A stretch of 64,000 bases of DNA from Candidatus Wolfebacteria bacterium RIFOXYD12_FULL_48_21 (GCA_001793945.1 MGIW01000004.1:26843-90842), one strand, 5' to 3'; shown: positions 5,664-49,065, counted from the stretch's first letter. The notes: generated by a model from the sequence alone, not told the origin. Made by a program: numbers and translations.

Positions 5664-5667
5664 ACAT

Positions 5668-6276: not shown

Positions 6277-6354
6277 CGACATATAGGGCGGGAATCATCT
6301 TCGTGGTATACTAAGCATAGAGAATATAATGCGTGCAGAGATACTAATCGGCTT

Positions 6355-7644: not shown

Positions 7645-7935
7645 AATTATCCGCGCACTATGTCTGCGAGCTTGTAAAATAGGGCGCTTCCACATTCTGT
7701 ATTCTCAGTGCGAGCCTGTGAAAATGCCGGATAAAATGGGCGCAAAAAATTTCCTCAGAAAACCCGTTGTTTGAGCGGCGCGCAGGAGCGAGTTCGGGTT
7801 TTCGTAAGAAATTTTCAAGCCCATTCCGTCATTTTTATTCGCTCGCGATTTTTGCCCTACTTTTACTAAAAAAGTAGGAAAAAGCGGATTCCGGCCTATG
7901 CCGGAATGATAGATTTTAGCGATGCGCAACTTAGG

Positions 7936-7964
7936 TTGACACCGAATACTATATATTGTATAGT
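7936..7964 (+). promoter_or_regulatory. Sigma70-like promoter (TTGACA-17-TATAGT) giving a roughly 270-nt 5' UTR for the DEAD-box helicase
   Basis: Consensus spacing; next start codon is at 8248. Confidence 0.5.
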
Positions 7965-8247
7965 GAATCGTCAGTTCAAATTAAATCAGTTCGGTCTCGA
8001 AAGACGCCGACGGATTCCTTATCGCCACCCGTACATACGGAGACCGTAGGCGAATGAACTTCTTGTCATGTTATTGCTATGTGATTCGAGTTACCATAAG
8101 GAATCACACAACCGAAATGCACAATTTTGGCGAACTGCATCGTTGCCTTCCTCGTTTGCTCCCGCGGAGTAGTTTACTACACCTTGGTTGCAAGCCTCGT
8201 CGGCGCCTTGCATTTCATCCAAAATGGCGCGTTTCAAACAATAATGT

Positions 8248-9762
8248 ATGACAACTAAAAAACCCACCGAGGGTTTTTACGGGCTCGGCATTGCGCCGAA
8301 ATTGCTCGAGATCCTCGACAAGAAAAAATTCACCACACCGACCCCCATTCAGCATGAGGCTATTCCGGTCGCCATCAGCGGCAAGGATATGATCGGCATT
8401 GCGCAAACGGGAACGGGCAAAACGCTTGCATTCGGTATTCCGATGATCCAGCGTCTTGCAAGCGGCAACAGCCAGGGCGTCATTTTGGTCCCTACGCGCG
8501 AACTTGCATTGCAGGTTGACGAACAGATACAGGCCATCGGCCGCGATCTCGGATTGTATACCGCAGTTCTGATCGGTGGAGCATCCATCGAAGTGCAGAA
8601 AAAAATGCTGCGCAGAAACCCGCACATTATCGTAGCAACGCCGGGTCGGTTTCTTGACCACATGAACCAGCGCACGCTCCGATTGGAAGGTGTGAACATG
8701 TTGGTACTCGACGAGGCGGATCGCATGCTCGACATGGGATTTGCGCCGCAGATCAACAAGATATTTGAGGCATTGCCGAAGGTGCGACAGACGCTGTTGT
8801 TTTCCGCGACCATGCCGGCAGATATCGTAAAGATAGCACAAAAACACATGGAGCTGCCGGTGCGCGTTGAAATGGCGCGTTCGGGTACTACGGCGGAAAA
8901 TGTCATTCAGGAAATGTTTATCGTTCGCAAGGACGATAAGGATCGTTTGCTGGAATCTTTGCTCGGAACCTATCAGGGAACGGTGTTGGTATTTTCGCGC
9001 ACGCGCCATGGCGCAACGAAGATCTGTCGCGCGATCAAGCGCATGGGGCATACTTCGGCCGAGATACACTCGAACCGATCGCTGTCTCAGCGAAAGGAGG
9101 CCTTGCTTGGCTTTAAGATAGGCAAATATCGCACATTGGTTGCAACCGATATCGCCGCACGCGGCATTGATGTAACGGGAATTGAATTGGTCATCAACTA
9201 CGATCTTCCGGATAGTCCGGAAGATTATGTGCACCGCATCGGTCGCACGGGCCGCGCAGGCGCAAAGGGCCGCGCGATCTCGTTTGCGGCACCAGATCAG
9301 CGGTTCAAGGTGCGCATCATCGAGCGATTGGTTCAGTCACAGATACCTTCCTTGCAGCTTCCGGAATTGCCGCCGCATCGCGAGCCCGCATTTCGTGAAG
9401 AGGAAGAAGATAGCCGGGAATCCCGTGGTGGCCGCTTTGGCGGACAGCGGGGAGGCGCGCGTCGTCCGTTTGGGCGCAGCAGTGAGCGAAGCGAAGGCTT
9501 CGCACCGCGAAAGCCAATGTTTGAAACGCGAGCCCCACATGCAGGCACAGCGCCCGCACGAAGGCCCGCGGCAACACCGTCCGCTTCTGCCGCAATGGGA
9601 GAACGATCACCGCGTGAGCGTGTGATCGCATCCGGCAACCGTGAAGATCGACGCAAGTCGGTCCAGCGTGGTCCGGCCAAAAAAAGCGATCGGGGAGGTT
9701 CGTCTCATGGGCGAATGTTCGGGAAGAAGCCGCGCAAGAGCGCAGGTAAATCTGAACGATAA
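8248..9762 (+). CDS. DEAD-box ATP-dependent RNA helicase with basic RG-rich C-terminal tail
   Basis: Q-motif, AQTGTGKT, DEAD, SAT, HRIGRTGRAG; C-terminal 130 aa low-complexity R/G/S-rich. Confidence 0.93.
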   Translation: MTTKKPTEGFYGLGIAPKLLEILDKKKFTTPTPIQHEAIPVAISGKDMIGIAQTGTGKTLAFGIPMIQRLASGNSQGVILVPTRELALQVDEQIQAIGRDLGLYTAVLIGGASIEVQKKMLRRNPHIIVATPGRFLDHMNQRTLRLEGVNMLVLDEADRMLDMGFAPQINKIFEALPKVRQTLLFSATMPADIVKIAQKHMELPVRVEMARSGTTAENVIQEMFIVRKDDKDRLLESLLGTYQGTVLVFSRTRHGATKICRAIKRMGHTSAEIHSNRSLSQRKEALLGFKIGKYRTLVATDIAARGIDVTGIELVINYDLPDSPEDYVHRIGRTGRAGAKGRAISFAAPDQRFKVRIIERLVQSQIPSLQLPELPPHREPAFREEEEDSRESRGGRFGGQRGGARRPFGRSSERSEGFAPRKPMFETRAPHAGTAPARRPAATPSASAAMGERSPRERVIASGNREDRRKSVQRGPAKKSDRGGSSHGRMFGKKPRKSAGKSER

Positions 9763-9851
9763 GAATTATCAAAATAATTTTTGGAATCGGGTCGCTCGTG
9801 TGATATGCAAATGCAATTTGCATATCACCACTTCGCTGCCGACTCTAAAAA

Positions 9852-9881
9852 AACGGAACGCATAAAGCGTTCCGTTTTTTT
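9852..9881. terminator. Bidirectional rho-independent terminator
   Basis: aaaaaaacggaacgcataaagcgttccgttttttt. Confidence 0.8.
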
Positions 9882-10142
9882 GTGTGGTGCGTGCCGATTG
9901 GGTCGAGGACAGGCCCTTACCCGCGGGAATGACAGGAAAAGGAGTGCGTATGCAAAACACCTCCGAAGAGGTGTTCTACATACGCAGCAGCTCGAAACCT
10001 TTTACTAATCTTACGACTGGCAAACTGCTGTTCGCTGCTGCGTATAAATATATTCGCATAGGGCAAAACGAAAGTCAATAGGTTGTATAGAGGTATGGAT
10101 ATGTGGAAGGGAGCGATTGGAAATATGCTACAATAGAGGCAT

Positions 10143-10781
10143 ATGAAAACGATCAAGGGGACAATTGCATGGATCGTGATCGGGCTCACATGGGTAACTG
10201 CAATCGTATTGTACGACGGGATGCCGGCCCGCATGGCAACGCATTGGAATGCGGCCGGCGTTGCGGATGGATATGCGGGAAAGGCATTTGCGTTGTTTCT
10301 GATTCCCGCGATCATGCTGCTTGTGCAGGGGTTGTTCGTGTTGATCCCGAAAATCGATCCGTTGCGGAAAAATATCGAAGCATTCAGGGAGCAATTCGAA
10401 GGGTTTGCATTACTGCTATCCGTATTTATGGCCTATTTGTTTGTGTTGATCATGCTATGGAGCAAAGGAGCCTTGTTTTCGATGACTGTTGCGCTTATGC
10501 CTGCATTTGCCAGTATGTTCTACGGCATGGGCTCATTGCTTAAAGGGATCAAACGCAATTGGTTTGTTGGAATCCGTACGCCGTGGACGATGAGTAGTGA
10601 TGTGGTATGGGACAAGACACATGCGTTGGGGAGTAGATTGTTCAAGGTATCGGGGGTGGTCATATTGGCAGGGGTGGTGCTCCCGCAATATGCAGTGTGG
10701 TTCATGGTAGGACCGATACTCGCAAGCACGCTGATTTCAGTGGTCTATTCATACAGAGTATTTAAAAAAGAAAACAAATAA
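10143..10781 (+). CDS. SdpI/YhfL-family membrane protein (DUF1648 + SdpI)
   Basis: Multi-TM, N-terminal DUF1648-like and SdpI-like C-terminal region; TACAAT 11 nt upstream of ATG. Confidence 0.7.
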   Translation: MKTIKGTIAWIVIGLTWVTAIVLYDGMPARMATHWNAAGVADGYAGKAFALFLIPAIMLLVQGLFVLIPKIDPLRKNIEAFREQFEGFALLLSVFMAYLFVLIMLWSKGALFSMTVALMPAFASMFYGMGSLLKGIKRNWFVGIRTPWTMSSDVVWDKTHALGSRLFKVSGVVILAGVVLPQYAVWFMVGPILASTLISVVYSYRVFKKENK

Positions 10782-10808
10782 CACCGGCCTTGGCCGGTGT
10801 TATTTGTT
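10780..10808. terminator. Bidirectional rho-independent terminator
   Basis: aacaccggccttggccggtgtt-atttgttt between convergent genes. Confidence 0.75.
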
Positions 10809-11363
10809 TCGAATGCTGAATATGCATCCGCAATAATTTTGATGATAAAAGCCGTGCTCTTTTGCAAGCGCGCGCGTCTTTGCCCATATGTCTTTTTTGG
10901 GTTCGCCAAAGTCGGCCATGGTAAGAAAGGTAAGTCCGAGCTTGTTTGCGATATCCGTACCGATGGCCCCGATGATATCCTCGTTTTTATACGGACTCGC
11001 GGCTAGCGTGGTGGTGAAATGCGTTGCGCCTTTTGCAAGCGCAAGCTCGCCGGTTTTTGCAAGACGCAAGCGGAAACAAAGCGGACATCGTTTTCCACCC
11101 TCGGGTTCGCCCTCAAAACCTGCGATCGCCTTATGCCAGTTTTGCGTATCGTAGTCGCCTTCGATGAACTCCGAGCCATAGAGGGACGCAAGCTTGATTA
11201 CCGAATCCCTGCGGCGTTCATATTCTTCCTGCGGATGAATATTGGGATTGTAGTAATAATAAATGATCGTAAACCGGTCTTTGAGCAGTTCGGAAAGATA
11301 AGCGCCACAAATGGCGCAACAGATATGAAGGACTAGTGTTGGTTTGGATATGCCGTTATTCAT
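10800..11363 (-). CDS. queH: Epoxyqueuosine reductase QueH (DUF208)
   Basis: HICCAPC-type Cys motif (HICCAICGAY), CPLCF, YCGC motifs characteristic of QueH. Confidence 0.85.
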   Translation of the reverse strand: MNNGISKPTLVLHICCAICGAYLSELLKDRFTIIYYYYNPNIHPQEEYERRRDSVIKLASLYGSEFIEGDYDTQNWHKAIAGFEGEPEGGKRCPLCFRLRLAKTGELALAKGATHFTTTLAASPYKNEDIIGAIGTDIANKLGLTFLTMADFGEPKKDIWAKTRALAKEHGFYHQNYCGCIFSIRNK

Positions 11364-11459
11364 TGCAAAAAGGGTACGGGATTATGCCAAGTCTGTCAAA
11401 ATCGGGCCTACCCCTATACCAACTTGCGAAGCATTTTGGTGTGGGGGTATACTGTAGTT

Positions 11460-12047
11460 ATGATAGATGTGTATTCGAAATTCGACGATCTTGCGGCGCG
11501 CATGGTTGAGGGAAAGGATTACCGGATCGTGGCGCACAAAAGAAACAGCCCGTATCTGATCATGGCGATACATGGAGGGCTCATAGAGCCGTTCACATCC
11601 GATATCGCAACCGCTCTTGCGGGCGAGGAATATGACCTCTATGTCTTTGAAGGCACACGAAAGGAAAGAAATGGAGAATTGCATATCGCAAGCGAATATT
11701 TCGATGAGCCGCAGGCAAAAGATATGGTTCGGGTTGCCGAAACGGTGGTTTGCATTCATGGGCACCACGATACGGAACATGAGTTTGTGATGGTGGGCGG
11801 GTTGGATGAAAGACTTGCGGAGAAGATGCGGACACGCTTATCCGAGATCGACATAGCAATGCAGTCGTTTGACGGACGACTTGCCCCGGAAAGTCCGAAT
11901 AACATTTGCAATCAGGGCATGTCGGGCGGGGGCATTGAAATAATGATCAGTAGGAAATTAAGGGATGCGCTCCGTGAAGACGCGGGGTTATATAGATTAT
12001 TCATCAACGCGATGAAGCATGCGATCGCGGCACATAAAAACGACTAA
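11460..12047 (+). CDS. Poly-gamma-glutamate hydrolase-family protein (PghP-like zinc peptidase)
   Basis: Gamma_PGA_hydro-like motifs (IAIHGG, HxE metal ligands; CIHGHHD); GGTATACT 6 nt upstream (leaderless-like). Confidence 0.7.
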   Translation: MIDVYSKFDDLAARMVEGKDYRIVAHKRNSPYLIMAIHGGLIEPFTSDIATALAGEEYDLYVFEGTRKERNGELHIASEYFDEPQAKDMVRVAETVVCIHGHHDTEHEFVMVGGLDERLAEKMRTRLSEIDIAMQSFDGRLAPESPNNICNQGMSGGGIEIMISRKLRDALREDAGLYRLFINAMKHAIAAHKND

Positions 12048-18422: not shown

Positions 18423-19070
18423 CTATTTAGCCTTATGCATAAGCGCTATTACTTCGGAATCTTCGACCTGAGGGAAGGAATCATAGAATGAGCCGATTGC
18501 GCCCATATATTCAGGAGTTGAAAGACAAACGACTTCATCGACCAGTCCGCTGATCTCGGATAGGCTGTCGGGAGGTGCTATGGGGACTGCTACGATGATT
18601 TTTTTAGGGTTGCGATGCTTAAGTTCTGCTATGGCACATTTCATAGTCAAGCCGGTGGCAATGCCATCATCGACGATAATGGCAATTTTATCGGAAGTAT
18701 CGATGGGTTGGGCGCTTGGAAGATATGTTTCGCGCCGGCGCTTTGCCTCAGCGCGTTGTATATTGATCTCTGCTTGTAGCCATTGCTGGTTAACGGAGGC
18801 GAGAATGGTTGGATCGCCGATCAGGTGTCCATCCTCGGCGACGGCGCCAATGGCGTATTCCGGGGCGGTCGGGTGGCTGATCTTCCGCGGAATGATCAGG
18901 TCGAGTGGTAGGTGAAGCGCGCTTGCGATTTCGAATCCGGTAACCACACCACCCCGCGGAAGTGCATAGACGACCGCATTGGTGTCTATATAGGAAAGAA
19001 GCTTTTGGGAGAGTTGCCTCCCGGCATCCTCTCGGTCCTTGAAGCGAAGTTCTTGGGGATTTAAAGGCAT
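18423..19070 (-). CDS. Phosphoribosyltransferase-family protein
   Basis: PRT-fold motif KIAIIVDDGIATGLT; predicted-PRTase type. Confidence 0.8.
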   Translation of the reverse strand: MPLNPQELRFKDREDAGRQLSQKLLSYIDTNAVVYALPRGGVVTGFEIASALHLPLDLIIPRKISHPTAPEYAIGAVAEDGHLIGDPTILASVNQQWLQAEINIQRAEAKRRRETYLPSAQPIDTSDKIAIIVDDGIATGLTMKCAIAELKHRNPKKIIVAVPIAPPDSLSEISGLVDEVVCLSTPEYMGAIGSFYDSFPQVEDSEVIALMHKAK

Positions 19071-19083
19071 GGCGGGTGGTGGC

Positions 19084-19179
19084 TGTCATCCCCGATCCGC
19101 CGGATGGCGGACGAGAAATCTGCAGATCCCTCTCCGCTTGCCCTGCCTACCGGCAGGCAGGTGGCGGATCGGGATGACA
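19084..19179. repeat. GC-rich inverted-repeat element, family copy A (TGTCATCCCCGATCCGCC ... GGCGGATCGGGATGACA)
   Basis: 17-bp terminal inverted repeats; internal ggatggcggacgag..cagatccctc..ccctgcctaccggcaggcagg shared with copies at 15305, 29238, 32728, 55742, 63336. Confidence 0.8.
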
Positions 19180-19262
19180 GAATAATAAATAATAGACTTA
19201 CTATAATAATACCACATCATATACTACATATTCCATGCGTATGATATACTAAAAGCATAATT

Positions 19263-20447
19263 ATGAAAAAATTCTTTCTAATCGGCATGGGCGGAATGGT
19301 GGTGAGCGCAGCGGCGTTTGGTTTGTCGCAAAGTAAAAATAATATATTAGTGCATCCAAGCGCAGTGAGTTCGAATGCATGGCAGGAAGAGGCTGTTATT
19401 TCTGAAGAAAAGCCGAGCATAAAAAGAATGGAAACGCCAAAGGTGGTGCGGGCCGTCTATTTGACCGCGCCGTCTGGTGGGCGCGAAGATAAGATACAGG
19501 CGATCATCAATATGAAAAAGGATGGCCTCAATGCCGTGGTCATAGACATAAAGGATTCATTCGGTGTGGTGGCATATGATTCACAGTTGGATACGGTCAA
19601 CCGGTATGAGCTGGAGAGAAAGTTCATTCCTGATCTTGCGGCGTTGGTGCAGCGGTTTCACGATGAAGGTATCTATGTAATAGCGCGTATCGCGGTGTTC
19701 CAAGACACGGCGCTTGCGGAGGCGCGGCCTGAACTGGCAGTGCATGACAGAAGCAAACTGAATGCGGCTGGTGGAGCGATGTCAAAAAAGACGCTTTGGC
19801 GCGATGGAAAGAACCTTGCATGGGTAGACCCGTCTTCGCGCGAAGTGGGGGAATATGTGGTCGCGCTTTCGAACGACGCCTTGAGTTACGGGTTTGACGA
19901 ACTGAATTACGATTACATCCGGTTTCCGTCAGACGGCAAGATATCAAGCATTGTATATTCCGTAACAAAACCAGACGCATCATATCCGGTACAGATAAGG
20001 GGATTCATGCAATATCTGCGCGAACAGTTGCATGACACCGTGCTATCGGTAGATCTATTCGGATTTACAATGGTAAAAAAGGAAGATATCGGCATCGGCC
20101 AGATCGTCGAAGATGCATACGCTTATTTCGACTTCGTAGCACCGATGGTCTACCCGTCGCATTACCCGAGCGGATTTATGGGATATAAAAATCCTGCGGC
20201 CTGGCCATACGAGATCATTGCGGATTCGATGCAAAAAGGACAGGCGCGATTGGATGCGTATCAAGCGACTGCATCAACAACGGCGAAGCTGCGACCATGG
20301 TTGCAGGACTTCGATCTCGGTGCCGACTACGATGCGGCGATGATCGGAAAACAGATACAGGCAACGGAAGATATGTTGGGTGAACAGTATGCAGGCTATA
20401 TGTTATGGAATCCATCGAGTAACTATACGATCGGTGGAGTGCAATAA
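19263..20447 (+). CDS. DUF4015-family putative glycoside hydrolase (TIM-barrel, GHL10-like), N-terminal TM/signal
   Basis: Blocks VRAVYLTA, NAVVIDIKD, IARIAVFQD, NYDYIRFP consistent with DUF4015. Confidence 0.7.
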   Translation: MKKFFLIGMGGMVVSAAAFGLSQSKNNILVHPSAVSSNAWQEEAVISEEKPSIKRMETPKVVRAVYLTAPSGGREDKIQAIINMKKDGLNAVVIDIKDSFGVVAYDSQLDTVNRYELERKFIPDLAALVQRFHDEGIYVIARIAVFQDTALAEARPELAVHDRSKLNAAGGAMSKKTLWRDGKNLAWVDPSSREVGEYVVALSNDALSYGFDELNYDYIRFPSDGKISSIVYSVTKPDASYPVQIRGFMQYLREQLHDTVLSVDLFGFTMVKKEDIGIGQIVEDAYAYFDFVAPMVYPSHYPSGFMGYKNPAAWPYEIIADSMQKGQARLDAYQATASTTAKLRPWLQDFDLGADYDAAMIGKQIQATEDMLGEQYAGYMLWNPSSNYTIGGVQ

Positions 20448-20533
20448 AAAAGTTATCCCCATACATCGGTCAATGTAATGGTGGTATACTTATAGAAGCA
20501 ATTAATGTAACCGTAAGGTAAAAAACAATACCC

Positions 20534-23500
20534 ATGTCCCATAAAAAAGGTGTATCGTTGTTTAGTATAATCACGATGGTCGGATTAATAGCCGGTGGCG
20601 TCATTTTTGGCGTTACACCTGCGTACGCCGCAGACGGATCAGGGACAAACTCCGTCACACCGACAAGTACCGATGTTAGCTCGACCGGGAATACATTCGC
20701 ATTCACATTTACGGCCGCAGAATTGATGGACTCCGGTGGCATTTCCATTTCTGTGCCAGCTGGATGGTCTGCTCCGCAAGGGACGCCGGGGGTGGCGGGT
20801 TATGCAACGACGAATTCAACCGCAGGCGTAATAGGAACTGTCCTGGCGAATGCTGACGCCACGACGGATACTGGGGGGACATGGGCAGAAGATGATAACG
20901 ATGCGTGCAGTACATTTTCCACATCAGCGACAACAAAAATAGAGGGCGCTGCTTCTGTACAATGTATTAATGCGGGAGGCCAACCCGATGATACAGATTC
21001 CTTTGGCTTGCAATATGGATCTGGTCAGAATTGGTCCGGGTATACAAAAATCGGGGTATGGCTCCGTTCAACCGTTGCAATATCAGGGGCAATAAATTAT
21101 ATCCAGGTTGCATATGACAATACTACAGGGGCACTAGGGGATGGAGGGGCATTGGAAACATTTAGCGTGCAATCATTGGCCGCAAACACATGGACATACT
21201 TCACATTTAATCTTACGGCTACACGCACTGCAGTTCAGGAGATAGGTATTGTGTGTAAGGGGTCGGGCTGTGATAGCAATACAATTTTTGTTGATTATAT
21301 TTTGATCGGCCCGGGCTCCCCGTCATTTTCTGGGTCTGGTCCATGGACAATAGATGCAAATTTCTTGGCCATGCCATCTGCCGGAACGACGACGATTACC
21401 TATGGCAGTGGAGGTGGTACGAGTGGTGTTACGGCACCGAGCACCGCAGGTGATTATACATTTACGACCCAGTCCCGTTTTGATGGCGGGGGAACGCTGA
21501 CCAATATTGCGTCATCGCCGGTCATACAGGTGCGCAACCCGGCTCCGACCATCGCAACAGTGTCGCCGACATCGACAACATATGGCGCAACACCAACACT
21601 GACGATAGCCGGTACAGGATACAATGCGAACACGACAGTAACATTCAATGGTGCGAGTAAGACACCGGCCGTTGCATCATCGACACAACTTTCGATCACA
21701 CTAAACGGAACAGATACTGCAACGGTCGGAACGACGACGATTGTAGTAACCAATCCAACGCCAGGAGGAGGGTCAGCAACCTCGACGGCTTTTGCGGTAG
21801 TCAAGGCAGATATCACAATCACATTGGGCTCATCTCTAAACCCATCTGCGTATGGTGATTTAGTAACCTTCACTGCAACTACGACCAGCGGCGTAGGAAC
21901 ACCAACCGGTGATGTCACATTCTTCGACGGCGCAACGCCGCTTGCGACCAGTACAATGACTGGCGGGGTTGCTACGCTTGCAACTTCTTCGTTAACTGTC
22001 GGTGCACACTCAATCACTGCCGTGTATAACGGCGACGCTAATTTCAATGCCAGCACCTCTGCCGCAGTAGCACAGACGGTCAATAAGGCAAACATCACCA
22101 TCACACTCGGTTCTTCACTGAACCCTTCAACCTACGGCGATTTAGTAACATTTACTGCGACCACAACCAGTGGAGTTGGAATGCCAAGCGGCACGGTCAC
22201 CTTTAAAGACGGAGGCGTTGCATTTGCAACAAGTACATTGACTGATGGGGTAGCGACGCTGGCAACAAGTACGCTTTCTATAGCAACGCATTCCATAACT
22301 GCAACATACAACGGCGACGAGATCTTCAATGCCAGCACCTCTGCCGCAGTAGCACAGACGGTCAACAAGGCAAATATCACAATCACGCTCGGCTCGTCAT
22401 TGAATCCATCTACCTACGGTGATTCCGTTACCTTCACCGCAACAACCACAAGTGGGGTGGGGACTCCAAGCGGAACCGTAACATTTAAAGACGGAGTTAC
22501 AAACTTAGCAACGAGCACATTGACTGGGGGAGTTGCAACATTTGCAACCGACGCATTAACTGTTGGTACGCACTCAATCACCGCTGTGTATAACGGTGAT
22601 ACCAACTTCAACGCAAGTACATCCGCCGCAGTTTCGCAGGTAGTGAATAATCCTACTCCGATAATTACGCTACTTTCCCCAAACACTATCGAGGAGGGAA
22701 GCGCTACGACTTCATTAACGATTAGTGGAAGTCAATTTGCGAGCGATGCAACAGTTACATTTGATGGAACACTCCTAATAATAGATACGCAGTCATCGAC
22801 TACTATTGATACCACTATCCCGGCATCACTATTGACCGCATTTGGAACTTCGACAGTTGCGGTTATCAATGCGGCTCCGGGCGGAGGAACGGCGACATCT
22901 TCATTTATTATAACGCGCGGCGCGGTAAAATTTGCATTTAGCGGTGCTCCGTATAGCGGTACCGTAGACGCGTCGATTACGGTAACGATACAGGCACAGC
23001 GCGAAAACGGAACAGTGGTGACCAATTATCAAAACGATGTAACGCTCGATGTAGGCGGTTCTGCAACACCGGAAAGTGTGCTGGTCAACATTATCAATGG
23101 CGCGGGGACGACGACCATAGCAAACACGGTAGCGGAAACGGTAACGCTTTCACTAACAGATACGCAGGGAACGGGCTTGGATGTAACTGCGACAACATCG
23201 GCAACATTTGCACACGGTGCAATAACGCAATTCACGCTTGCGGGACCGGCAACGCTCAATGTGGGTGACCGCGCAGCATTTACAACGACGAGAAAGGATC
23301 AGTACGGCAATCCGGTGACCAGCGGCCCGGATACCACGGTATATTTCTATACGACATCGACTTCATCATCGGCAGTATTTTACGACGCCGCAATCGATGG
23401 AACCGTGATAACCTCAGCGATCATTGGATCGGGAGCAAGCACGACAATGGCATGGTATTACGATGAAGAGCCGGGCGTGTATACGATCACCGCATCGGAC

Positions 23501-26500
23501 AATGGAACGGCCCCCGACGGCAATACGGGCATTGACGATGCAACCAGTACGCTGACCGTGAACGCAGTAGCGACTCGCTTCGTGATCATCGATCCGACCG
23601 ATGGCACGGTAGATGCGTCGATCACGGTGGTGGTACAGGCACAGGATAACCTCGGCAGAATTATTACGGACTATCAGAACGATGTGACACTGATCGCGTC
23701 AAGTACGGGTGGACAAGTGAACGCAACCAGCACATTGATCAATATTGTGAATGGCTCCGGTACGACGACCATATCAAATACCATAGCGGAAACGGTATCC
23801 CTTTCGCTACTGGATTCGCAGGGTGCCGGATTGAATGTCGCATCATCAACGCAAGATGTGGTGTTTGCGCCGGGAGCGGTGGCGCAATTTTCACTGACGC
23901 ATAGCGGCGACATGGAGCAGAACACGCGCAAGGAATTTGTCGCGGGGCGAAAGGATCAATATGGAAACTTCGTAAGTGCAAGCACGACCCCTGCGTATGT
24001 GTATGCAAGTCCGACCAGTACGGCAAAGTTTTATGATGCCGATGCGGGTGGCAATGAGATTACCTCTATCGCATTTACGCCCGGTAACGCGACGACCAGT
24101 TTCTGGTTCTATAGCAACACGCCGGCAACAACGACTATAACGGTCTCAGATAATGCGACCGCACCGGACGGCGATACGGGTATCGATGATGCAACAAATG
24201 AAATCTTGGTGACGCCGACCGCGGTGCGGTTTGAGATCGTCGATCCGACCGACGGCACGGTAGACGCGGCAATCACGGTCACCGTTCGGGCATTGGATGA
24301 GTTCGGACAGGTAGTGCCGAGCTTTACCGAAGATGTAACGCTGCTGGTGACGGGGAGTGCGGTCGCCAATCCGGTATTGATTGATATTGAAAACGGAATA
24401 GGAACGACCCAAGTAAGCGATACGGTTGCGGAAACCGTAACATTGTCGTTGTCGGATACGCAAAGCACGGGCCTCGCGGCGACATCGACACAGAATGTGA
24501 TATTTGCGGTAGGTGTATTTGCAAAGTTGAATCTGAACAATGTGATCAATGCGACGGCCGGGGATCTGGTCGCTTACACGGTCACGCGTACCGATCAATA
24601 TAATAATCAGATAACCGGCGGCTCGATAACGGTAGCCCTTTCGGCAACCCCAACAACAACCCCGGGTACATTTTATAGTAGCAACTCGACTTCAAGTTCG
24701 GTGATCACATCGGTAGCGATCGATGCCGGAAATGCTTCGGCGCAATTCTGGTATTACAATGAAGTGGCAGGGTCGTATCAGGTTACCGCGCAAAGTGGCG
24801 CAGTGATCGGATATGATGATATCGTGATCGACCCGGCAGCAATCGCCAAGTTTACGATCAATGATCGCACCAGTATGAATCCGGCGAGTCGCGTGCAATA
24901 TACGGTGGTGCGCAAAGATCAATTCAATAACTTGGTAACCACGGGCAATACAACGGCGTATCTGTATGCCGATCCGGCTGGGACTGGTACCGCATTTTAT
25001 GATGCTGCGACGAACGGCAACGCAGTAACAAGCGTAACGATTGGCAGTGGCCAATCATCGCAAAGCGCATGGTATTATGAAGAGACCAGCGGCAATCACA
25101 CGATTACCGCTTCGGATAACGCGACCGCGCCGGATGGAGCGGCGGGTATTATTGATGCTACCGATGTGATCTCGGTGCAGACTGCAACCGGAACACGGTT
25201 TATGTTTGAGCCGGAACCGGATCCGCAAACATTAGCAGCGGGAGCGTCTTCATTGGTGACGATCCAGGTGCAGGATGACTTTGGAAATATTGATACGAAT
25301 TATCAGAATGATGTGACACTGGTCACGGGCGTGACATCGGTAAGCGGTACCGGATTGACTGATGGGCAGGCATTGATCAACATCGTCAACGGTGAAGGAA
25401 CTATCACGCTGACCGACACGGTCGCCGAGACCGTTAACTTGGCGCTGTCTGATACGCAGGGAACGGGGTTGGTTGTGACCGACACTGCGTCGATCACATG
25501 GACCGCCGGAGCGGTGTCGCAGTTCACAATCACCGATCAGACCAGTATAGTGGCGGGGACGAGTACGCCGTACACCGTAACAAGAAAGGATCAATATGGA
25601 AATGTGGTGACCTCGGGAAGCAACCTTGTGTACTTATATACCAATTCAACGGGCGCACAGGCCCGATTTCAGACAACGGAAACAGGAACGACCTCGATAT
25701 CATTTGTGACGCTTGCAAGCGGGTTTGCATCGACGACATTCTATTATTACGACGAAGAGGCGGGCACATGGGATATCACCGCATCAGATAATGCGACTGC
25801 TTCTGACGGAGCAACAGGGATTGACGATGCATCAGATTCACTGATCGTAACGGCGGCCCCGGTCGTGGCGGATCGGTATGTGATACTCGACCCGGCAGAT
25901 GCAGGGTTGAACGAGGTGACGGTCGTGATCGTTCAGGCACAAGATGCCGATGGCGGATTGGATACGACCATCCAGGAAGATATTTATTTGGTCTTTAGTA
26001 CATCATCGATACAGACCGCAGGACTTGTCGGCCAGCGCGTTCAAGTGAGTATGGTGGACGGTATTGGTACGGTATCAATCCAGGATACCGTAGCGGAAAC
26101 AGTGCAGCTTTCATTGGAGCGATTAGCTGGCTCAACCTCGACATTGGCGATCACATCAACGCAGGATGTGATGTTCTTCGTGCGACAAACATTTGGAGGT
26201 GGAGGTGCGGGCGGAGGCGTATATGTCGCTCCGACCGCGATATTTACGGGCCGGGCCTATCCGGGGGCGACTATTGTATTGTTTGCGCGCATAGGAGGAC
26301 AGGATATTCCGCTTGAGCGTAATATTGAGGTGCGGGCGGATGGTACATTTACCGTAGATTTTTCTGGCGAGTTGCGCGGGCTGGAATCGTTCGGGCTTGC
26401 CATCTTGGACAAGGACGGAAAGATTGCGCAGATCAAGACCTATACTATGGATAAGATAACGCGCGCGACCGAAGAGAAAAATCTGTACATCGCGCCGACT

Positions 26501-26944
26501 GCGGAATTAGTATCGCGCACGGTGACTATTGGTAATAATGTCGGACTCACGGGTTCTGCCGCGCCGGGGAGTGTGGTAAAGGCTGAAGTTGACGGACAGG
26601 CGGTTGACGCGCAGGCGACGGCAGGAAACAACGGCGCATATAGACTCTTGGTCAATACGCGAGATCTTTCCTATGGAGGACATATTATTCGAACCAAGCA
26701 GGTTGATAAAAATGGGGTTGAGAGTGATTGGTCCCCATTGAAAGTGTTTATGGTCACGCGCACATTGGTCACGCGGGCCGACTTGAACAATAACGGAGGT
26801 ATAGATATCGGCGATTGGAGTATCTTCCTTACGCGATTTGGATCGATCAATGCGGAAGAAAAACGGCAAGTAGATTTGAACGATGATGGCAAGGTCGACA
26901 TATCAGACTTTAGTATATTCATCCGGTCTGCAATCAACAGGTAA
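20534..26944 (+). CDS. Giant (2136 aa) surface protein: N-terminal anchor/signal, Ig-like repeat arrays, C-terminal dockerin domain
   Basis: Three roughly 95-aa Big-like repeats (21790-22645) and six roughly 290-aa repeats (about 22900-26100), repeated at DNA level; C-terminal tandem Ca-binding loops DLNNNGGIDIGD and DLNDDGKVDISD each followed by an amphipathic helix, canonical type-I dockerin. Confidence 0.9.
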   Translation: MSHKKGVSLFSIITMVGLIAGGVIFGVTPAYAADGSGTNSVTPTSTDVSSTGNTFAFTFTAAELMDSGGISISVPAGWSAPQGTPGVAGYATTNSTAGVIGTVLANADATTDTGGTWAEDDNDACSTFSTSATTKIEGAASVQCINAGGQPDDTDSFGLQYGSGQNWSGYTKIGVWLRSTVAISGAINYIQVAYDNTTGALGDGGALETFSVQSLAANTWTYFTFNLTATRTAVQEIGIVCKGSGCDSNTIFVDYILIGPGSPSFSGSGPWTIDANFLAMPSAGTTTITYGSGGGTSGVTAPSTAGDYTFTTQSRFDGGGTLTNIASSPVIQVRNPAPTIATVSPTSTTYGATPTLTIAGTGYNANTTVTFNGASKTPAVASSTQLSITLNGTDTATVGTTTIVVTNPTPGGGSATSTAFAVVKADITITLGSSLNPSAYGDLVTFTATTTSGVGTPTGDVTFFDGATPLATSTMTGGVATLATSSLTVGAHSITAVYNGDANFNASTSAAVAQTVNKANITITLGSSLNPSTYGDLVTFTATTTSGVGMPSGTVTFKDGGVAFATSTLTDGVATLATSTLSIATHSITATYNGDEIFNASTSAAVAQTVNKANITITLGSSLNPSTYGDSVTFTATTTSGVGTPSGTVTFKDGVTNLATSTLTGGVATFATDALTVGTHSITAVYNGDTNFNASTSAAVSQVVNNPTPIITLLSPNTIEEGSATTSLTISGSQFASDATVTFDGTLLIIDTQSSTTIDTTIPASLLTAFGTSTVAVINAAPGGGTATSSFIITRGAVKFAFSGAPYSGTVDASITVTIQAQRENGTVVTNYQNDVTLDVGGSATPESVLVNIINGAGTTTIANTVAETVTLSLTDTQGTGLDVTATTSATFAHGAITQFTLAGPATLNVGDRAAFTTTRKDQYGNPVTSGPDTTVYFYTTSTSSSAVFYDAAIDGTVITSAIIGSGASTTMAWYYDEEPGVYTITASDNGTAPDGNTGIDDATSTLTVNAVATRFVIIDPTDGTVDASITVVVQAQDNLGRIITDYQNDVTLIASSTGGQVNATSTLINIVNGSGTTTISNTIAETVSLSLLDSQGAGLNVASSTQDVVFAPGAVAQFSLTHSGDMEQNTRKEFVAGRKDQYGNFVSASTTPAYVYASPTSTAKFYDADAGGNEITSIAFTPGNATTSFWFYSNTPATTTITVSDNATAPDGDTGIDDATNEILVTPTAVRFEIVDPTDGTVDAAITVTVRALDEFGQVVPSFTEDVTLLVTGSAVANPVLIDIENGIGTTQVSDTVAETVTLSLSDTQSTGLAATSTQNVIFAVGVFAKLNLNNVINATAGDLVAYTVTRTDQYNNQITGGSITVALSATPTTTPGTFYSSNSTSSSVITSVAIDAGNASAQFWYYNEVAGSYQVTAQSGAVIGYDDIVIDPAAIAKFTINDRTSMNPASRVQYTVVRKDQFNNLVTTGNTTAYLYADPAGTGTAFYDAATNGNAVTSVTIGSGQSSQSAWYYEETSGNHTITASDNATAPDGAAGIIDATDVISVQTATGTRFMFEPEPDPQTLAAGASSLVTIQVQDDFGNIDTNYQNDVTLVTGVTSVSGTGLTDGQALINIVNGEGTITLTDTVAETVNLALSDTQGTGLVVTDTASITWTAGAVSQFTITDQTSIVAGTSTPYTVTRKDQYGNVVTSGSNLVYLYTNSTGAQARFQTTETGTTSISFVTLASGFASTTFYYYDEEAGTWDITASDNATASDGATGIDDASDSLIVTAAPVVADRYVILDPADAGLNEVTVVIVQAQDADGGLDTTIQEDIYLVFSTSSIQTAGLVGQRVQVSMVDGIGTVSIQDTVAETVQLSLERLAGSTSTLAITSTQDVMFFVRQTFGGGGAGGGVYVAPTAIFTGRAYPGATIVLFARIGGQDIPLERNIEVRADGTFTVDFSGELRGLESFGLAILDKDGKIAQIKTYTMDKITRATEEKNLYIAPTAELVSRTVTIGNNVGLTGSAAPGSVVKAEVDGQAVDAQATAGNNGAYRLLVNTRDLSYGGHIIRTKQVDKNGVESDWSPLKVFMVTRTLVTRADLNNNGGIDIGDWSIFLTRFGSINAEEKRQVDLNDDGKVDISDFSIFIRSAINR

Positions 26945-27001
26945 TGCGTGTATATGCATTCCGTGGTATACTAAATAAAAGTAATTAACACGAATCGAGT
27001 C

Positions 27002-28717
27002 ATGAAATATAAACTTTCACTTTTTGTCGCGAGCGCTCTCTTCCTATTCGCCGTGACACACATCGCGTCAGCCGCAACATTGCAACTAACGACCAGTAAA
27101 GATACATTTGCAATCGGCAATCAATTCACGGTCGATGTGAAAACGGACAGCGAGGGGGTTGGTATCAATGCCGCGCAGGGAACGGTGCAAATATCCAAGG
27201 ATGTTTTGGAGATCGTAAGTGTCGACAAGACCGGTTCGGTATTTAATTTCTGGCTTACGGAGCCGACCTTTTCAAATGATTCCGGGCAAGTCAATTTCAT
27301 CGGCGGTTCAACGAGCGGCTTTTCGGGTCGATCGTTGCATATCGTAAAAATAACATATCGGGTCAAGGGAAGTGGCAAGACGGATATCGTGTTTACCGAT
27401 GGTGCCGTGACTGCGAGCGATGGTAGCGGTACAAATGTGTTGACCTCGATGAAGGGCCTCTCGATTACGAGCGTGCCCTCATCAGAGCTGGAAACGATCA
27501 CTCCCAAACCGACGCAAATTACGCGTCCGGCTTCGCGCGCGGAGCGTTTACCGGAGCGTCCGACCATTCAAGTGGCAGGATATCGGGACCCTGAGGCGTG
27601 GTACAATTTCGCGACTCGATTTTCCGCGTCATGGCAATTGACCGATGACATCACGGATGTGGCTACGGCAATAAACAGGGATCCGCTATTTTCTCCGACT
27701 ATTTCGGAGGGGCTGTTCGATAACAAGATCTTTTTGCCGATCAGCGAAGGGGTTTCTTATCTACATGTGCGTATGCGCAACGGCATCGGCTGGGGCCCTA
27801 CGCTGCATTACCGGTTGGCGATAGATCTTACTCCACCTCCGACTTTTCAGGCGCGTGTTCAGGAGGGAATAGAGACCGACAGCCCGACTCCAACAATCGA
27901 ATACTCGGCAAGTGATGGCTTGTCCGGGCTGAAGCGGTATTATATCCAGCAGAATGGAGGGACTGTGCGTACGATCGAAACAGGTCCATATAAGATGGAC
28001 CCGCAAAAACCAGGCAAACACCTCATTAAGATTGGTGCGGAAGACAACGCAGGAAATAGTGTAGAGAGCATTTTACATTTAGACATCTTGCCGATCGAGG
28101 CGCCGAAGATCACATCACTCACCGGGGATGTATTTGTTGGAGAGGGGCGACTCGATGTTATCGGGACTGCCTTGCCGGACATTGCATTACAGGTAGAGCT
28201 CAAGACAAAAGAAGGGCAGATTGAACAATCAAGCGAGATCAGGTCTGACACACATGGCAGCTGGGCGATCCGATTCGACAGACCATTAAAGAAAGGAGAT
28301 TATGTTATTGAAGTGACCGCGCGTGATGGCCGAGGGGCACTGAGCTACCCCGTCACATCGGGCATGATTAAAGTTCGTGCGAGGCCGGCACTGGTATTGG
28401 GAGGCCTGGAGCTGACCCAATTTTGGTTCTTCATCGTGCTGGTATTCGCATTGATCGGCGCATTTGTCGCGGGCTGGTTGTTTGTACGCTTCGAGCGGGA
28501 TCAGCGCGCACGCAAGATAGTTATTTGTCAGCGCGATATTACCAACATGCTCGCCATGGTAAAGCGGGACATCGATAGGATTCTCGAAAAATATGCCGAT
28601 GACAAGATAGACGAAGCCGAAGTTTCGGAAATAAAGCATATCGCGAAAAAGGCAAGTGAAAATATAGAAAAATCGGGCAAATATTGCGTGCAAAGTATAG
28701 GGGAGATCAATAAATGA
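27002..28717 (+). CDS. Membrane-anchored protein with N-terminal cohesin-like domain, Ig-like region, C-terminal TM and cytoplasmic coiled-coil tail
   Basis: Signal peptide; residues about 25-160 follow the cohesin pattern (FTVDVKTD..GVGINAAQGTVQISKDVLEIVSV..G; GQVNFIGG...LHIVKITYRVKGSGKTDIVF); TM helix FWFFIVLVFALIGAFVAGWLFV near the C-terminus. Confidence 0.65.
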   Translation: MKYKLSLFVASALFLFAVTHIASAATLQLTTSKDTFAIGNQFTVDVKTDSEGVGINAAQGTVQISKDVLEIVSVDKTGSVFNFWLTEPTFSNDSGQVNFIGGSTSGFSGRSLHIVKITYRVKGSGKTDIVFTDGAVTASDGSGTNVLTSMKGLSITSVPSSELETITPKPTQITRPASRAERLPERPTIQVAGYRDPEAWYNFATRFSASWQLTDDITDVATAINRDPLFSPTISEGLFDNKIFLPISEGVSYLHVRMRNGIGWGPTLHYRLAIDLTPPPTFQARVQEGIETDSPTPTIEYSASDGLSGLKRYYIQQNGGTVRTIETGPYKMDPQKPGKHLIKIGAEDNAGNSVESILHLDILPIEAPKITSLTGDVFVGEGRLDVIGTALPDIALQVELKTKEGQIEQSSEIRSDTHGSWAIRFDRPLKKGDYVIEVTARDGRGALSYPVTSGMIKVRARPALVLGGLELTQFWFFIVLVFALIGAFVAGWLFVRFERDQRARKIVICQRDITNMLAMVKRDIDRILEKYADDKIDEAEVSEIKHIAKKASENIEKSGKYCVQSIGEINK

Positions 28718-28769
28718 CCACGGTGAAAGAGTGCTTTACCAATGGAGATATATACGATATACTATAACC

Positions 28770-29153
28770 ATGCATAAAATTGTTATCGTCGAAGACGAGG
28801 AGGCTCTGGCAAGAGTACTCAAAGAAAAATTTGAAGGCGAAGAGTTCGTTGTGGAACTGGCAATGGATGGAAAGGTTGCGCTTCCGATCATACAAAAGAT
28901 GCGTCCCGACCTCGTACTGCTCGACCTGATGCTCCCGAAAAGGGACGGTATAGATGTCTTGAAGGACATCAAGGCCGATCGGGATCTGGAAAATCTTCCG
29001 GTCATCGTGCTGTCCAATCTGGATGGAGACGAAGATATCAAGCAGGCGATAGCACTCGGAGCGAAAGACTATTTCGTAAAAAGCCAACATCCGATCAAGG
29101 AAGTCGTGGAAAAGGTCAAAGACTTTTTGATCAATCCGCAGCAATATAAGTAA
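28770..29153 (+). CDS. Orphan single-domain response regulator (receiver only)
   Basis: REC motifs (VEDEE, LVLLDLMLP, VIVLSN..D, K); GATATACT 6 nt upstream (leaderless-like). Confidence 0.85.
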   Translation: MHKIVIVEDEEALARVLKEKFEGEEFVVELAMDGKVALPIIQKMRPDLVLLDLMLPKRDGIDVLKDIKADRDLENLPVIVLSNLDGDEDIKQAIALGAKDYFVKSQHPIKEVVEKVKDFLINPQQYK

Positions 29154-29161
29154 GCCATAAA

Positions 29162-29188
29162 GCTCCGCCGTGTATGGCGGGGTTTTTA
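29162..29188 (+). terminator. Rho-independent terminator
   Basis: gctccgccgtgtatggcggggttttt. Confidence 0.7.
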
Positions 29189-29237
29189 AGCATATATTCG
29201 ACACAGTAGGGAAATAACAAAAAATAATTGATTTTCT

Positions 29238-29288
29238 TGTCATTCCGAGCGGAGCAGTACTCTGCGAAGTCGAGGAATCTGCAGAACC
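29238..29288. repeat. Repeat family copy D (partial): TGTCATTCCGAGCGGAGC...CGAGGAATCTGCAG
   Basis: Shares terminal TGTCATTCCGA and CGAGGAATCTG blocks with the other copies. Confidence 0.6.
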
Positions 29289-29324
29289 ATTAGTAAACTT
29301 GAGGTGATAAATACGAATGTAATT

Positions 29325-30611
29325 ATGAAAAAAAGACAATATTATGATGTGGCAGTTATCGGTGGCGGGCCTGCCGGCATGATGGCGGCAGGCCGCGCCG
29401 CGGAACTGGGTGCGCGCGTCGTATTGGTGGAAAAAAATGAAAGCCTGGGTAAAAAACTGCTGCTTACCGGAGGCGGGCGATGCAATCTTACGAACGCCGA
29501 GCCGGATGCGCGAAAGTTTATAGAAAAACTTGGCGGCAAGAACGGCAAATTCTTTTTTTCGCCGCTCGCGGCATTTGGAACGCAACAGACGGTTGATTTT
29601 TTTGAACGCATGGGGGTAAAAACCAAAGTAGAGGATCGTAAGCGCGTATTTCCGATATCCGATAACGCAGCGGATATTTTGCATGCCTTGGAGGCATACA
29701 TGGAGCGCGGCAATGTTACCGTAATGACAGATGCAACGGCGGCCGGATTTAATACAAGAGAAAACAAGCTGACCCAACTATTATTGCGGGGGGGTGAGGT
29801 GGAGGCGGCATCGTATGTGCTGACCACAGGCGGGCGCTCAAGGCCGGAAACGGGTTCGAGCGGCGAGGGGCTGAAGTGGGTCGCGAAATTGGGACACCAT
29901 GTGTTAAATCCATTCCCGGCATTGGTGCCATTAAAAATATCCGACGCGTGGGTAAAAAAGACACAGGGACTGAGTATGGACAATGTAGCGGTAACACTGT
30001 TGGTAAATGGGAAAAAAGATTCTGCGCGCACGGGAAATATTTTGTTTACGCACTTCGGCATGAGCGGGCCGACGATATTGGATATGAGTAAGCGGGTTGG
30101 AGAGGTAGTAAAGGATAAAAGTGCGGAAGTGCTTTTATCTCTCGACCTTAAACCGGCGCTGACGATTGCGCAACTGGATGAGCGAATGCAAAAGGATTTT
30201 AAAAAATATCAGAACAAGACATTCCGAAACAGTCTCGATGATCTTTTGCCGAGGAAATTGATTCCCGCGATAATCGCGTTGGTAAAGATCAATCCCAATA
30301 AAGCGGTACATGAAATAACGCGTGAGGATCGGCTGCGGTTAGTAAAAATGCTTAAAGACCTGCGCATGACGCCGATCGGACTTTTGGGGTTCGACAAGGC
30401 GATCGCGTCGAGCGGTGGTGTAGACTTAAATGAGGTAGATTCAAAAACGATGTGCTCGAAACTGGTGGAAAATCTCTATTTCGCCGGAGATGTGCTTGAT
30501 ATTGATGCGCCGACGGGAGGGTTTAATTTGCAATTGTGCTGGAGCGCAGGGTATGTGGCCGGTGAAGCGGCGGCCCGCGAAGCAATAAAGGAAAGGAATG
30601 CGCATATATGA
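29325..30611 (+). CDS. HI0933/BaiN-like NAD(FAD)-utilising flavoprotein
   Basis: N-terminal GGGPAG dinucleotide motif and GGGRCN block typical of the HI0933 family. Confidence 0.8.
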   Translation: MKKRQYYDVAVIGGGPAGMMAAGRAAELGARVVLVEKNESLGKKLLLTGGGRCNLTNAEPDARKFIEKLGGKNGKFFFSPLAAFGTQQTVDFFERMGVKTKVEDRKRVFPISDNAADILHALEAYMERGNVTVMTDATAAGFNTRENKLTQLLLRGGEVEAASYVLTTGGRSRPETGSSGEGLKWVAKLGHHVLNPFPALVPLKISDAWVKKTQGLSMDNVAVTLLVNGKKDSARTGNILFTHFGMSGPTILDMSKRVGEVVKDKSAEVLLSLDLKPALTIAQLDERMQKDFKKYQNKTFRNSLDDLLPRKLIPAIIALVKINPNKAVHEITREDRLRLVKMLKDLRMTPIGLLGFDKAIASSGGVDLNEVDSKTMCSKLVENLYFAGDVLDIDAPTGGFNLQLCWSAGYVAGEAAAREAIKERNAHI

Positions 30612-46769: not shown

Positions 46770-46776
46770 TACCAAT

Positions 46777-49014: not shown

Positions 49015-49065
49015 CTCGGACAATGGTGGAGTTTTTGTTTGAGGAGCAGTATACTGAATATACTT

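Follow-up and report, generated by a model that had tools for sequence, protein, structure and literature searches.

Among single-cohesin surface anchors, OlpA and OlpC of Clostridium thermocellum combine a type I cohesin with SLH domains, while ScaE of Ruminococcus flavefaciens carries a type III cohesin, is anchored by sortase and holds the adhesin CttA through an X-dockerin. Cohesin-dockerin pairs are also known outside cellulosomes, for example from Archaeoglobus fulgidus and Clostridium perfringens, and we take the A. fulgidus structure 2xdh and the structures 2vo8, 2w1n and 2jh2 from C. perfringens glycoside-hydrolase/toxin proteins to represent such non-cellulosomal cohesins. In the Candidate Phyla Radiation (CPR), the dockerin-domain envelope protein SEML1_0315 of the saccharibacterium Southlakia epibionticum is essential by transposon sequencing (Tn-seq) and was proposed to act in host-cell adhesion, according to the passages of the source that treat this protein (Wang et al. 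2023, PMC10633639). The subject of the present analysis is a 64-kb stretch of DNA from Candidatus Wolfebacteria bacterium RIFOXYD12_FULL_48_21, referred to as the window at its full length, in which the gene for a secreted surface protein (DOC) is followed by the gene for a membrane anchor (COH). DOC ends in a dockerin and COH starts with a cohesin domain, both genes stand next to each other one to one in related genomes, and the pair is linked to a response regulator (RR) and a histidine kinase (HK). The cassette is probably a non-cellulosomal cohesin-dockerin system for surface display that is widespread in Parcubacteria (Paceibacteria).

Modular architecture of COH and DOC

The six-frame translation of the whole window was searched for motifs. 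Four open reading frames (ORFs) are located on one strand at 19263-20447, 20534-26944, 27002-28717 and 28731/28770-29153, and an ORF scan with translations places all four as in an earlier account of this DNA made without database searches (the sequence-only reading). The second and third ORF encode DOC and COH, for which the features below were assigned using, among others, Pfam, NCBIfam and AlphaFold2 (AF2) models scored by the predicted local distance difference test (pLDDT).

20534-26944, + strand: DOC, secreted surface protein of 2136 aa (ORF, translation, three Pfam Big_3_5 matches at E 4e-57, orthologous position in 78 loci)
20534-20629, + strand: Sec-type signal peptide of DOC, residues 1-32 (translation)
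21821-22603, + strand: three tandem Big_3_5 immunoglobulin (Ig)-like repeats, DOC residues ~430-690 (PF16640 in three stretches, visible in the translation)
26219-26941, + strand: conserved C-terminal module of DOC, residues ~1896-2136 (tblastn, conservation profile, weak Big_6 match)
26777-26941, + strand: dockerin, DOC residues 2082-2136 (PF00404 on the isolated C-terminus; unique in the window)
27002-28717, + strand: COH, type-I membrane anchor of 571 aa (ORF, homologs, AF2 model with pLDDT 85.5)
27002-27073, + strand: signal peptide of COH, residues 1-24
27074-27484, + strand: cohesin domain, COH residues 25-161
27557-28396, + strand: stalk of COH, three beta-sandwich domains at residues ~186-275, 295-362 and 366-465 (AF2 secondary structure, Pfam, NCBIfam)
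28412-28714, + strand: transmembrane (TM) helix (471-495) and cytoplasmic helical hairpin (496-571) of COH (AF2 helices, conservation)

On full-length COH, Pfam reports no Cohesin match at E<=0.1, and residues 25-172 alone match PF00963 with 24.3 bits versus a gathering score of 24.1 (E 4e-5). Because this match is marginal, the structure of COH was predicted. Foldseek with the full-length model yielded generic multi-Ig matches only, including an archaeal S-layer protein, and the domain was then predicted alone. The isolated residues 25-161 (50 sequences) gave an all-beta model with a pLDDT of 96.7 and a predicted template-modelling score (pTM) of 0.89, for which all 50 best Foldseek matches in the PDB are cohesins of types I, II and III or of the non-cellulosomal kind (E 5.5e-8 to 1e-5). 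The predicted domain is a nine-stranded jelly-roll beta-sandwich that is superposable on solved cohesins, and with this model the cohesin fold of the COH N-terminus is established. The structurally closest cohesins include non-cellulosomal ones; the best template-modelling scores belong to type I and non-cellulosomal cohesins, with types I, II and III scoring alike, and the absence of any helix in the 137 residues of the model (DSSP) favours a type-I-like module. At the sequence level, a phmmer search of the cohesin domain against PDB sequences returned nothing significant, and the full-length COH profile gave weak cohesin matches in the PDB (E 0.03-0.06). Precomputed PF00963 matches are present in about half of the 120 COH homologs among the matches listed, and several homologs are named 'cohesin domain-containing protein' by NCBI. 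The invariant residues of COH cluster in the cohesin (N56, A57, F83, W84, P88, G102, G109, G125, D140, G141 and G143) and are positioned on strands 3, 5, 6 and 8 and in the 8-9 loop, as assigned by strand order. In solved complexes the 8-3-6-5 sheet of cohesins is the dockerin-binding face, and by analogy the invariant residues of COH would lie on the predicted dockerin-binding face.

The AF2 model of full-length COH (40 homologs) contains the signal peptide, four beta domains and two helices, 473-531 and 538-570. A hydrophobic TM stretch (471-495) is contained in the long helix of this model and is followed by basic residues. The cytoplasmic hairpin is conserved, with near-invariant residues R511, D512, Y561 and I569; a PDB profile search with this tail returned a weak match to the hypothetical protein AF0941 only. 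The possibility that the hairpin is a degenerate DHp domain docking the receiver was rejected, as hhalign against the HisKA region of the window kinase gave a probability of 0.2%. Within the stalk, the last domain belongs to Big_13 (Pfam E 3.7e-7) and the middle one is FN3/PKD/OmpL47-like, with weak matches to PKD and to NCBIfam barrel_OmpL47. The middle domain (window 27884-28087, residues ~295-362; profile ~274-362) is also found repeated 30-45 times in three giant proteins of 4,000-6,900 aa (P0160, P0207 and P0244). The block of residues ~186-275 (window 27557-27826) is the most conserved extracellular part besides the cohesin, with the motifs YPDPxKWYN…SEGLFDNK…WYLHVRFxNNxGWG…IDTxPP, and no Pfam or NCBIfam family matches it above threshold; it may serve in touching the cell wall. 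COH contains no catalytic domain or carbohydrate-binding module (CBM) in Pfam and NCBIfam, no SLH match in Pfam and no LPXTG motif, and it is the only cohesin ORF that the family hidden Markov model (HMM) detects in the window.

DOC starts with a Sec signal peptide, followed by three near-identical Big_3_5 repeats and further Ig-like repeats, and ends in a module of two Ig-like (Big_6-type, weak Big_6 match) domains and the dockerin. Both dockerin segments are composed of a 12-residue EF-hand-like Ca loop (D1, N/D3, D/N5, D12) and a helix, and they are spaced 31 residues apart. Loop 1, DLNNNGGIDIGD (nt 26780-26815, DOC residues 2083-2094), continues into WSIFL and loop 2, DLNDDGKVDISD (nt 26873-26908, residues 2114-2125), into FSIFI, which places a [WF]SIF[LI] helix after each loop motif within the last 55 residues of the protein. 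Pfam Dockerin_1 scores 21.9 bits on whole DOC, slightly below the gathering score of 22.9, and PF00404 on the isolated C-terminal 122 aa reaches 26.4 bits (E 8e-6) and is a family match; the region also gives weak EF-hand matches in Pfam. Both a regular expression (regex) for dockerin loops in the six frames of the 64 kb and a dockerin HMM built from orthologs (E 9e-29) match the DOC ORF only. Most DOC homologs carry precomputed PF00404 matches, and homologs carry PF17936 as well. In Pfam and NCBIfam, DOC has no catalytic domain and no CBM, and its N-terminal and middle regions have no informative domain.

These results agree with the module assignments of the sequence-only reading, which had proposed a C-terminal type-I dockerin of two 12-residue loops each followed by a helix (confirmed by the loops and by the Pfam score on the isolated C-terminus), a cohesin in the first ~135 residues of COH (Pfam on the isolated domain, the high-scoring model and cohesins in 50/50 Foldseek matches) and a C-terminal TM helix with a cytoplasmic coiled-coil tail (TM helix and helical tail in AF2 helices 473-531 and 538-570). 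Its term 'scaffoldin' was overstated, as COH is a single-cohesin anchor.

Conservation of the pair and its two-component linkage

The distribution of the pair was followed by scanning one genome per species with a COH alignment, by which 210 relatives were found and 80 loci of ~20 kb each were kept, at 35-89% identity. They originate from Wolfe-, Staskawicz-, Colwell-, Yonath-, Nomura-, Azam-, Harrison-, Buchanan-, Lloyd-, Adler-, Jorgensen-, Uhr- and Magasanikbacteria and from unclassified Paceibacterota. With family HMMs, every locus (80/80) has exactly one cohesin ORF, and 78/80 have one dockerin ORF; of the two loci without the latter, one (L012) has no upstream DNA and the other (L070) no DOC gene. 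DOC and COH are adjacent in 78/79 loci, and DOC is mostly separated from the gene that follows by -4 to +25 nt. In ~75 loci, the ORF directly upstream of COH has dockerin loops ~53 and ~22 residues from its C-terminus (regex), a motif that occurs almost nowhere else in these loci. Reciprocal look-ups that start from dockerin proteins likewise find cohesin genes next door; the dockerin protein P0132, for example, is encoded in the order DOC-COH-RR-HK-RR. In sister genomes the dockerin protein is therefore essentially never found without a cohesin partner, as the sequence-only reading had led one to expect. In the window, COH starts 57 nt past the DOC stop codon and both genes share a reading frame. 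The 57-nt spacer (26945-27001) contains two in-frame stops; relatives mostly have -4 to +25 nt at this position.

Only the last ~240 aa of DOC are conserved across Parcubacteria. By tblastn, the C-terminal part is found in 78/80 loci at 24-86% identity and the N-terminus in just 12, while the length of DOC ranges from 141 to >3312 aa across loci. The three Big_3_5 repeats of ~88 aa each are almost identical, and close Wolfebacteria orthologs measure 2136 to >3312 aa. Near-identical repeats together with length gaps of hundreds of residues between close orthologs suggest that the exposed part of DOC undergoes rapid repeat expansion and contraction.

Uhrbacteria show variants with one to three cohesin genes after DOC. 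In one of them, a protein whose dockerin is of a different, second subtype (…DFSIAAYWYK…DFSIMAYYWTG) precedes a cohesin protein of 211 aa and a COH of 594 aa (hhalign probabilities 97% and 100%), and a third dockerin-led locus continues with two short proteins, of 281 and 360 aa, that combine a cohesin with a TM segment. Variant cassettes of Uhrbacteria-like genomes are located at 5160-11787 in locus L084 and at 8001-11543 in L086, and the variant with the 211-aa cohesin-only protein and the 594-aa COH has a further cohesin ORF on the opposite strand. In L084, otherwise invariant cohesin motifs are altered along with the dockerin subtype (GGSTSGF to GIVLNPGF and TASDGSGTN to LANDGKGTN), a joint change that is suggestive with regard to pairing, as a single case read from sequence.

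The COH family is large. Its full-length homologs of ~570 aa number more than 440, and among 1.84 billion cluster representatives (50% identity) a profile search gave 2,915 COH matches at E<=1e-30, mostly of ~560-610 aa. Many metagenome-assembled genomes with the cassette (L009-L011 and many others) are labelled 'uncultured Candidatus Saccharibacteria' or even 'Gammaproteobacteria'/'Methylococcaceae'. Because their COH proteins are of the typical Parcubacteria type, these labels appear to stem from errors in taxonomic naming or binning and not from a real presence in those groups.

The DOC-COH pair is genetically coupled to a two-component pair. When all ORFs of the 80 loci were clustered without prior assumptions, four conserved families only were obtained: COH (79 loci), DOC (78), a stand-alone receiver of ~125 aa (72) and a histidine kinase (55), with the next family at 11. 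The genes occur in the order HK-RR-DOC-COH or DOC-COH-RR-HK(-RR), and the cassette kinases have the domain order HAMP-PAS-HisKA-HATPase_c. The receiver-cluster gene of 72/80 loci is found on either side of DOC-COH, and tblastn detects a homolog of the window receiver in 73/80. Adjacency was counted in the 47 loci with genes on both flanks of the pair: 41 of them have a receiver directly next to it and 45 have one at most three genes away (<=3), and a kinase is <=3 genes from the pair in 39. Most receivers beside the pair are orthologous to the receiver of the window, and their mean identity of 51-60% exceeds the 35-46% that most COH proteins outside Wolfebacteria share with the window COH. The motifs VEDE, LLDL, VLSN and FVK are conserved in 62 cassette-adjacent receivers, so that the acidic pocket, the phospho-acceptor Asp, the Ser and the Lys are kept, and the cassette receivers have a strikingly conserved C-terminal stretch, DYFVKSQHPIxEVVEKVK.

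The other features of the window that bear on this linkage or on the genomic setting are:

28770-29153, + strand: stand-alone CheY-like receiver without output domain, 127 aa (PF00072 E 2.6e-24)
44505-49464, + strand: two histidine kinases and a second receiver, probable displaced signalling partners (tblastn homology to cassette kinases, Pfam)
19263-20447, + strand: DUF4015 gene, 394 aa (Pfam E 1.8e-86)

The receiver downstream of COH likely starts at the ATG at 28770 (MHKIV) and not at the GTG at 28731. It had been described as an orphan receiver immediately downstream; its identity and position hold, while the word 'orphan' does not, as it belongs to a conserved cassette that usually includes a histidine kinase. 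Two kinases of the window are encoded at 44505-46769 (dCache-PAS-HisKA-HATPase) and 46777-49014 (HAMP-PAS-HisKA-HATPase), followed by a second stand-alone receiver at 49039-49464. Cassette kinases align with these window kinases at 41-55% identity by tblastn (E down to 5e-179), and on such sequence similarity the three genes are probably the displaced signalling partners of DOC-COH. A third stand-alone receiver is located at 1407-1853 (PF00072 E 5e-19), and all three response regulators of the window are without an output domain.

The nearest public relative of COH is from Candidatus Wolfebacteria RIFOXYB1_FULL_54_12 (89% identity over 571 aa), and further Wolfebacteria COH proteins share 69-79% identity, with synteny along the entire stretch. 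Because the closest relatives and the synteny are those of Wolfebacteria, the CPR/Parcubacteria origin that the sequence-only reading deduced is right. The same reading had noted a DUF4015 gene upstream as a putative glycoside hydrolase; domain and position are as described, and its membership in the system was rejected, because tblastn finds the synteny kept solely in the two closest Wolfebacteria. The flanks consist of housekeeping genes (PRPP synthetase, a phosphoribosyltransferase, an HI0933-like flavoprotein, Dus and Obg). In a promoter and terminator scan of 19000-29400, sites were no commoner than in shuffles and none was present between DOC, COH and RR, and an Rfam scan of the window gave no matches.

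Proposed mechanism and rival explanations

In the proposed mechanism, the signal peptide of COH would be cleaved and the N-terminal cohesin would be exposed outside the cell, lifted off the membrane by a stalk made up of a proline-rich linker and the three beta-sandwich domains, with one TM helix as the anchor and a helical hairpin of ~75 residues in the cytoplasm. DOC, presumably co-transcribed with COH at tight spacing, would be exported by Sec without an anchor of its own, after which its dockerin, consisting of two Ca-binding loop-helix segments behind two Ig-like domains, would plug non-covalently into the cohesin. Docking would thereby display the long, fast-evolving Ig-repeat part of DOC at the cell surface. 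The cassette would be coupled to a PAS/Cache histidine kinase and the stand-alone receiver. As the latter has no output domain, direct transcriptional control is unlikely, and as it has no DNA-binding domain, it would most likely act via protein-protein contact, with the conserved COH tail in the cytoplasm as the obvious candidate for a target. That the receiver indeed acts on this tail is doubtful at present.

A dockerin-cohesin contact between DOC and COH is inferred from the one-to-one conserved adjacency, from the absence of another anchor on DOC and from the known behaviour of these module families, and display of DOC on the cell through this bond is likely. A function of DOC as an adhesin or surface fibre for contact with host cells or a substrate is the most likely one, at slightly better than even odds. 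Several observations weigh against these proposals. The Pfam match of the cohesin exceeds the gathering score by a mere 0.2 bits and is obtained with the isolated domain only, and the dockerin score of full-length DOC stays below its gathering score. The putative interface residues barely vary in the 78 pairs, which leaves an analysis of covariation without power. A crude check found no obvious hydrophobic N-terminus in 14/52 apparently complete DOC ORFs, which are probably start-codon miscalls. The adhesin or host-contact role is deduced from architecture, and the N-terminal 300 aa of DOC yielded no ligand-binding domain. On the signalling side, the window kinases are ~15 kb away from DOC-COH with housekeeping genes between, the adjacency of receivers may partly reflect how common such genes are, given three stand-alone receivers in the window, and neither a PDB profile search nor hhalign revealed similarity of the COH tail to any known receiver-docking domain.

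With the cohesin-dockerin mechanism unchanged, DOC might instead be the major component of an S-layer-like coat of structural or protective purpose, with COH as the membrane tether in the role of SLH or lipid anchors. Such a coat would fit a cassette that is near-universal and single-copy in the loci examined, as for a core envelope component, as well as the combination of a variable exposed part with a conserved anchoring module known from S-layer proteins; the full-length COH model also matches multi-Ig arrays including an archaeal S-layer protein, although these matches are generic. Furthermore, Luef et al. in 2015 are said to have reported a distinct surface layer on groundwater CPR cells by cryo-electron microscopy (cryo-EM). 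However, a ~20-fold range in DOC length (141 to >3312 aa) is odd for a lattice-former, and coupling to a sensor kinase and a receiver points to regulation more than to a constitutive coat; a coat is considered an unlikely function of DOC. The modules could also be real without being mutual partners, if the cohesin binds other dockerins of its own cell or of a host, or if the dockerin is a Ca-binding, EF-hand-like stabiliser and adjacency reflects co-regulation. A second dockerin subtype in the CPR proteins P0136-P0159, the presence of several cohesin genes beside one dockerin gene in some genomes, where the choice of partner may be more complex, and the weak EF-hand matches of the dockerin point in this direction. 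This is nonetheless quite improbable in view of the one-to-one co-occurrence and tight spacing in 78/79 loci at 35-89% identity while all other neighbours change, the lack of another anchoring device on DOC and the change of the L084 cohesin motifs where the dockerin subtype changes. In addition, binding does occur in neighbouring pairs from outside cellulosomes, that of A. fulgidus among them (PMC12484212).

The idea of a minimal cellulosome-like degrader of polysaccharides, in which COH is a scaffoldin and DOC and the upstream DUF4015 protein act on glycans, draws on the hallmark status of cohesin and dockerin modules and on the putative glycosyl hydrolase directly upstream, and cohesin/dockerin proteins of another CPR lineage were taken as a cellulosome in a metaproteomic paper (10.1101/2021.08.21.457207). 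It is highly improbable, given that COH has a single cohesin and lacks a CBM, DOC is without a catalytic domain, the 64 kb contain a single dockerin and the DUF4015 protein has none and is syntenic in the two closest relatives only; the structurally nearest cohesins, moreover, include non-cellulosomal ones. Within the 64 kb there is neither a multi-cohesin or CBM-bearing scaffoldin nor any dockerin-bearing enzyme. Non-cellulosomal surface attachment, as suggested by the sequence-only reading, is the best supported explanation, with one cohesin, one dockerin, no catalytic domain or CBM and Ig-repeat cargo.

Surface display of DOC by COH might be taken one step further. HK-RR-DOC-COH could be a Parcubacteria-wide sense-and-display machine, in which the phosphorylated receiver binds the COH hairpin and controls clustering, localisation or mechanical engagement of the adhesin, comparable to integrin-like inside-out signalling, or in which the load on the adhesin is relayed inward. 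This extension is speculative and more probably wrong than right; if true, it would amount to a regulated host-attachment organelle made from cellulosome parts and specific to ultra-small episymbionts.

Significance and comparison with known systems

Parcubacteria are the largest part of the CPR and still lack cultures, and COH-DOC is a concrete, testable candidate for the means by which they attach to hosts or surfaces and for what covers their cells. Work on CPR attachment has so far centred on type IV pili in Saccharibacteria. The call of the cohesin domain is already known and is not new, because public databases label some members 'cohesin domain-containing protein'. The new elements are a cohesin on a TM anchor whose cytoplasmic tail is conserved, a cargo that is modular and varies, and a conserved association with a kinase and a stand-alone receiver; the full-text literature searched, with most subscription-journal papers outside reach, holds no description of the HK-RR-DOC-COH cassette. 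A conserved membrane cohesin anchor would thus carry an exchangeable, fast-evolving surface protein, and the anchor family has thousands of cluster representatives at 50% identity. The link to a kinase and an output-less receiver suggests a post-translational control point on surface display, for which we know of no described precedent in cohesin-dockerin biology. The analysis also corrects a recurrent mis-annotation, in which CPR cohesin/dockerin genes are taken as evidence for cellulose degradation. For applications, the pair could serve the engineering of protein assemblies as a new, orthogonal cohesin-dockerin specificity, and the conserved cohesin is a possible handle, by antibody or bait, to enrich or image Parcubacteria cells.

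SEML1_0315 resembles DOC in being a CPR surface protein with a dockerin, a likeness drawn from its description, but belongs to another CPR class, and the passages of the source on this protein describe no cohesin partner or cassette (PMC10633639). The classical scaffoldins CipA, CipC and ScaB have the cohesin fold and a dockerin of duplicated segments in common with DOC-COH, and the near-symmetric segments of the DOC dockerin (D[WF]SIF) resemble those type I dockerins that can bind in two modes, 2vn5/2vn6 being among the structural matches. In contrast to these scaffoldins, DOC-COH has only one cohesin, lacks a CBM and enzyme cargo, and includes one dockerin protein at each locus. The cohesins of A. 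fulgidus and C. perfringens are found in soluble or secreted enzymes or in proteins without an assigned role, and not on a TM anchor with stalk and cytoplasmic tail as in COH; to our knowledge, no conserved linkage of these cohesins to a kinase and a receiver has been reported. COH would work like the single-cohesin surface anchors OlpA/OlpC and ScaE, the latter with CttA as its cargo, without being a member of this group: instead of SLH or LPXTG, it has a TM helix at the C-terminal end and a conserved hairpin in the cytoplasm, and it occurs outside any cellulosome background, in a CPR bacterium, where it forms with DOC a unit of two genes that stands alone and is coupled to a two-component system.

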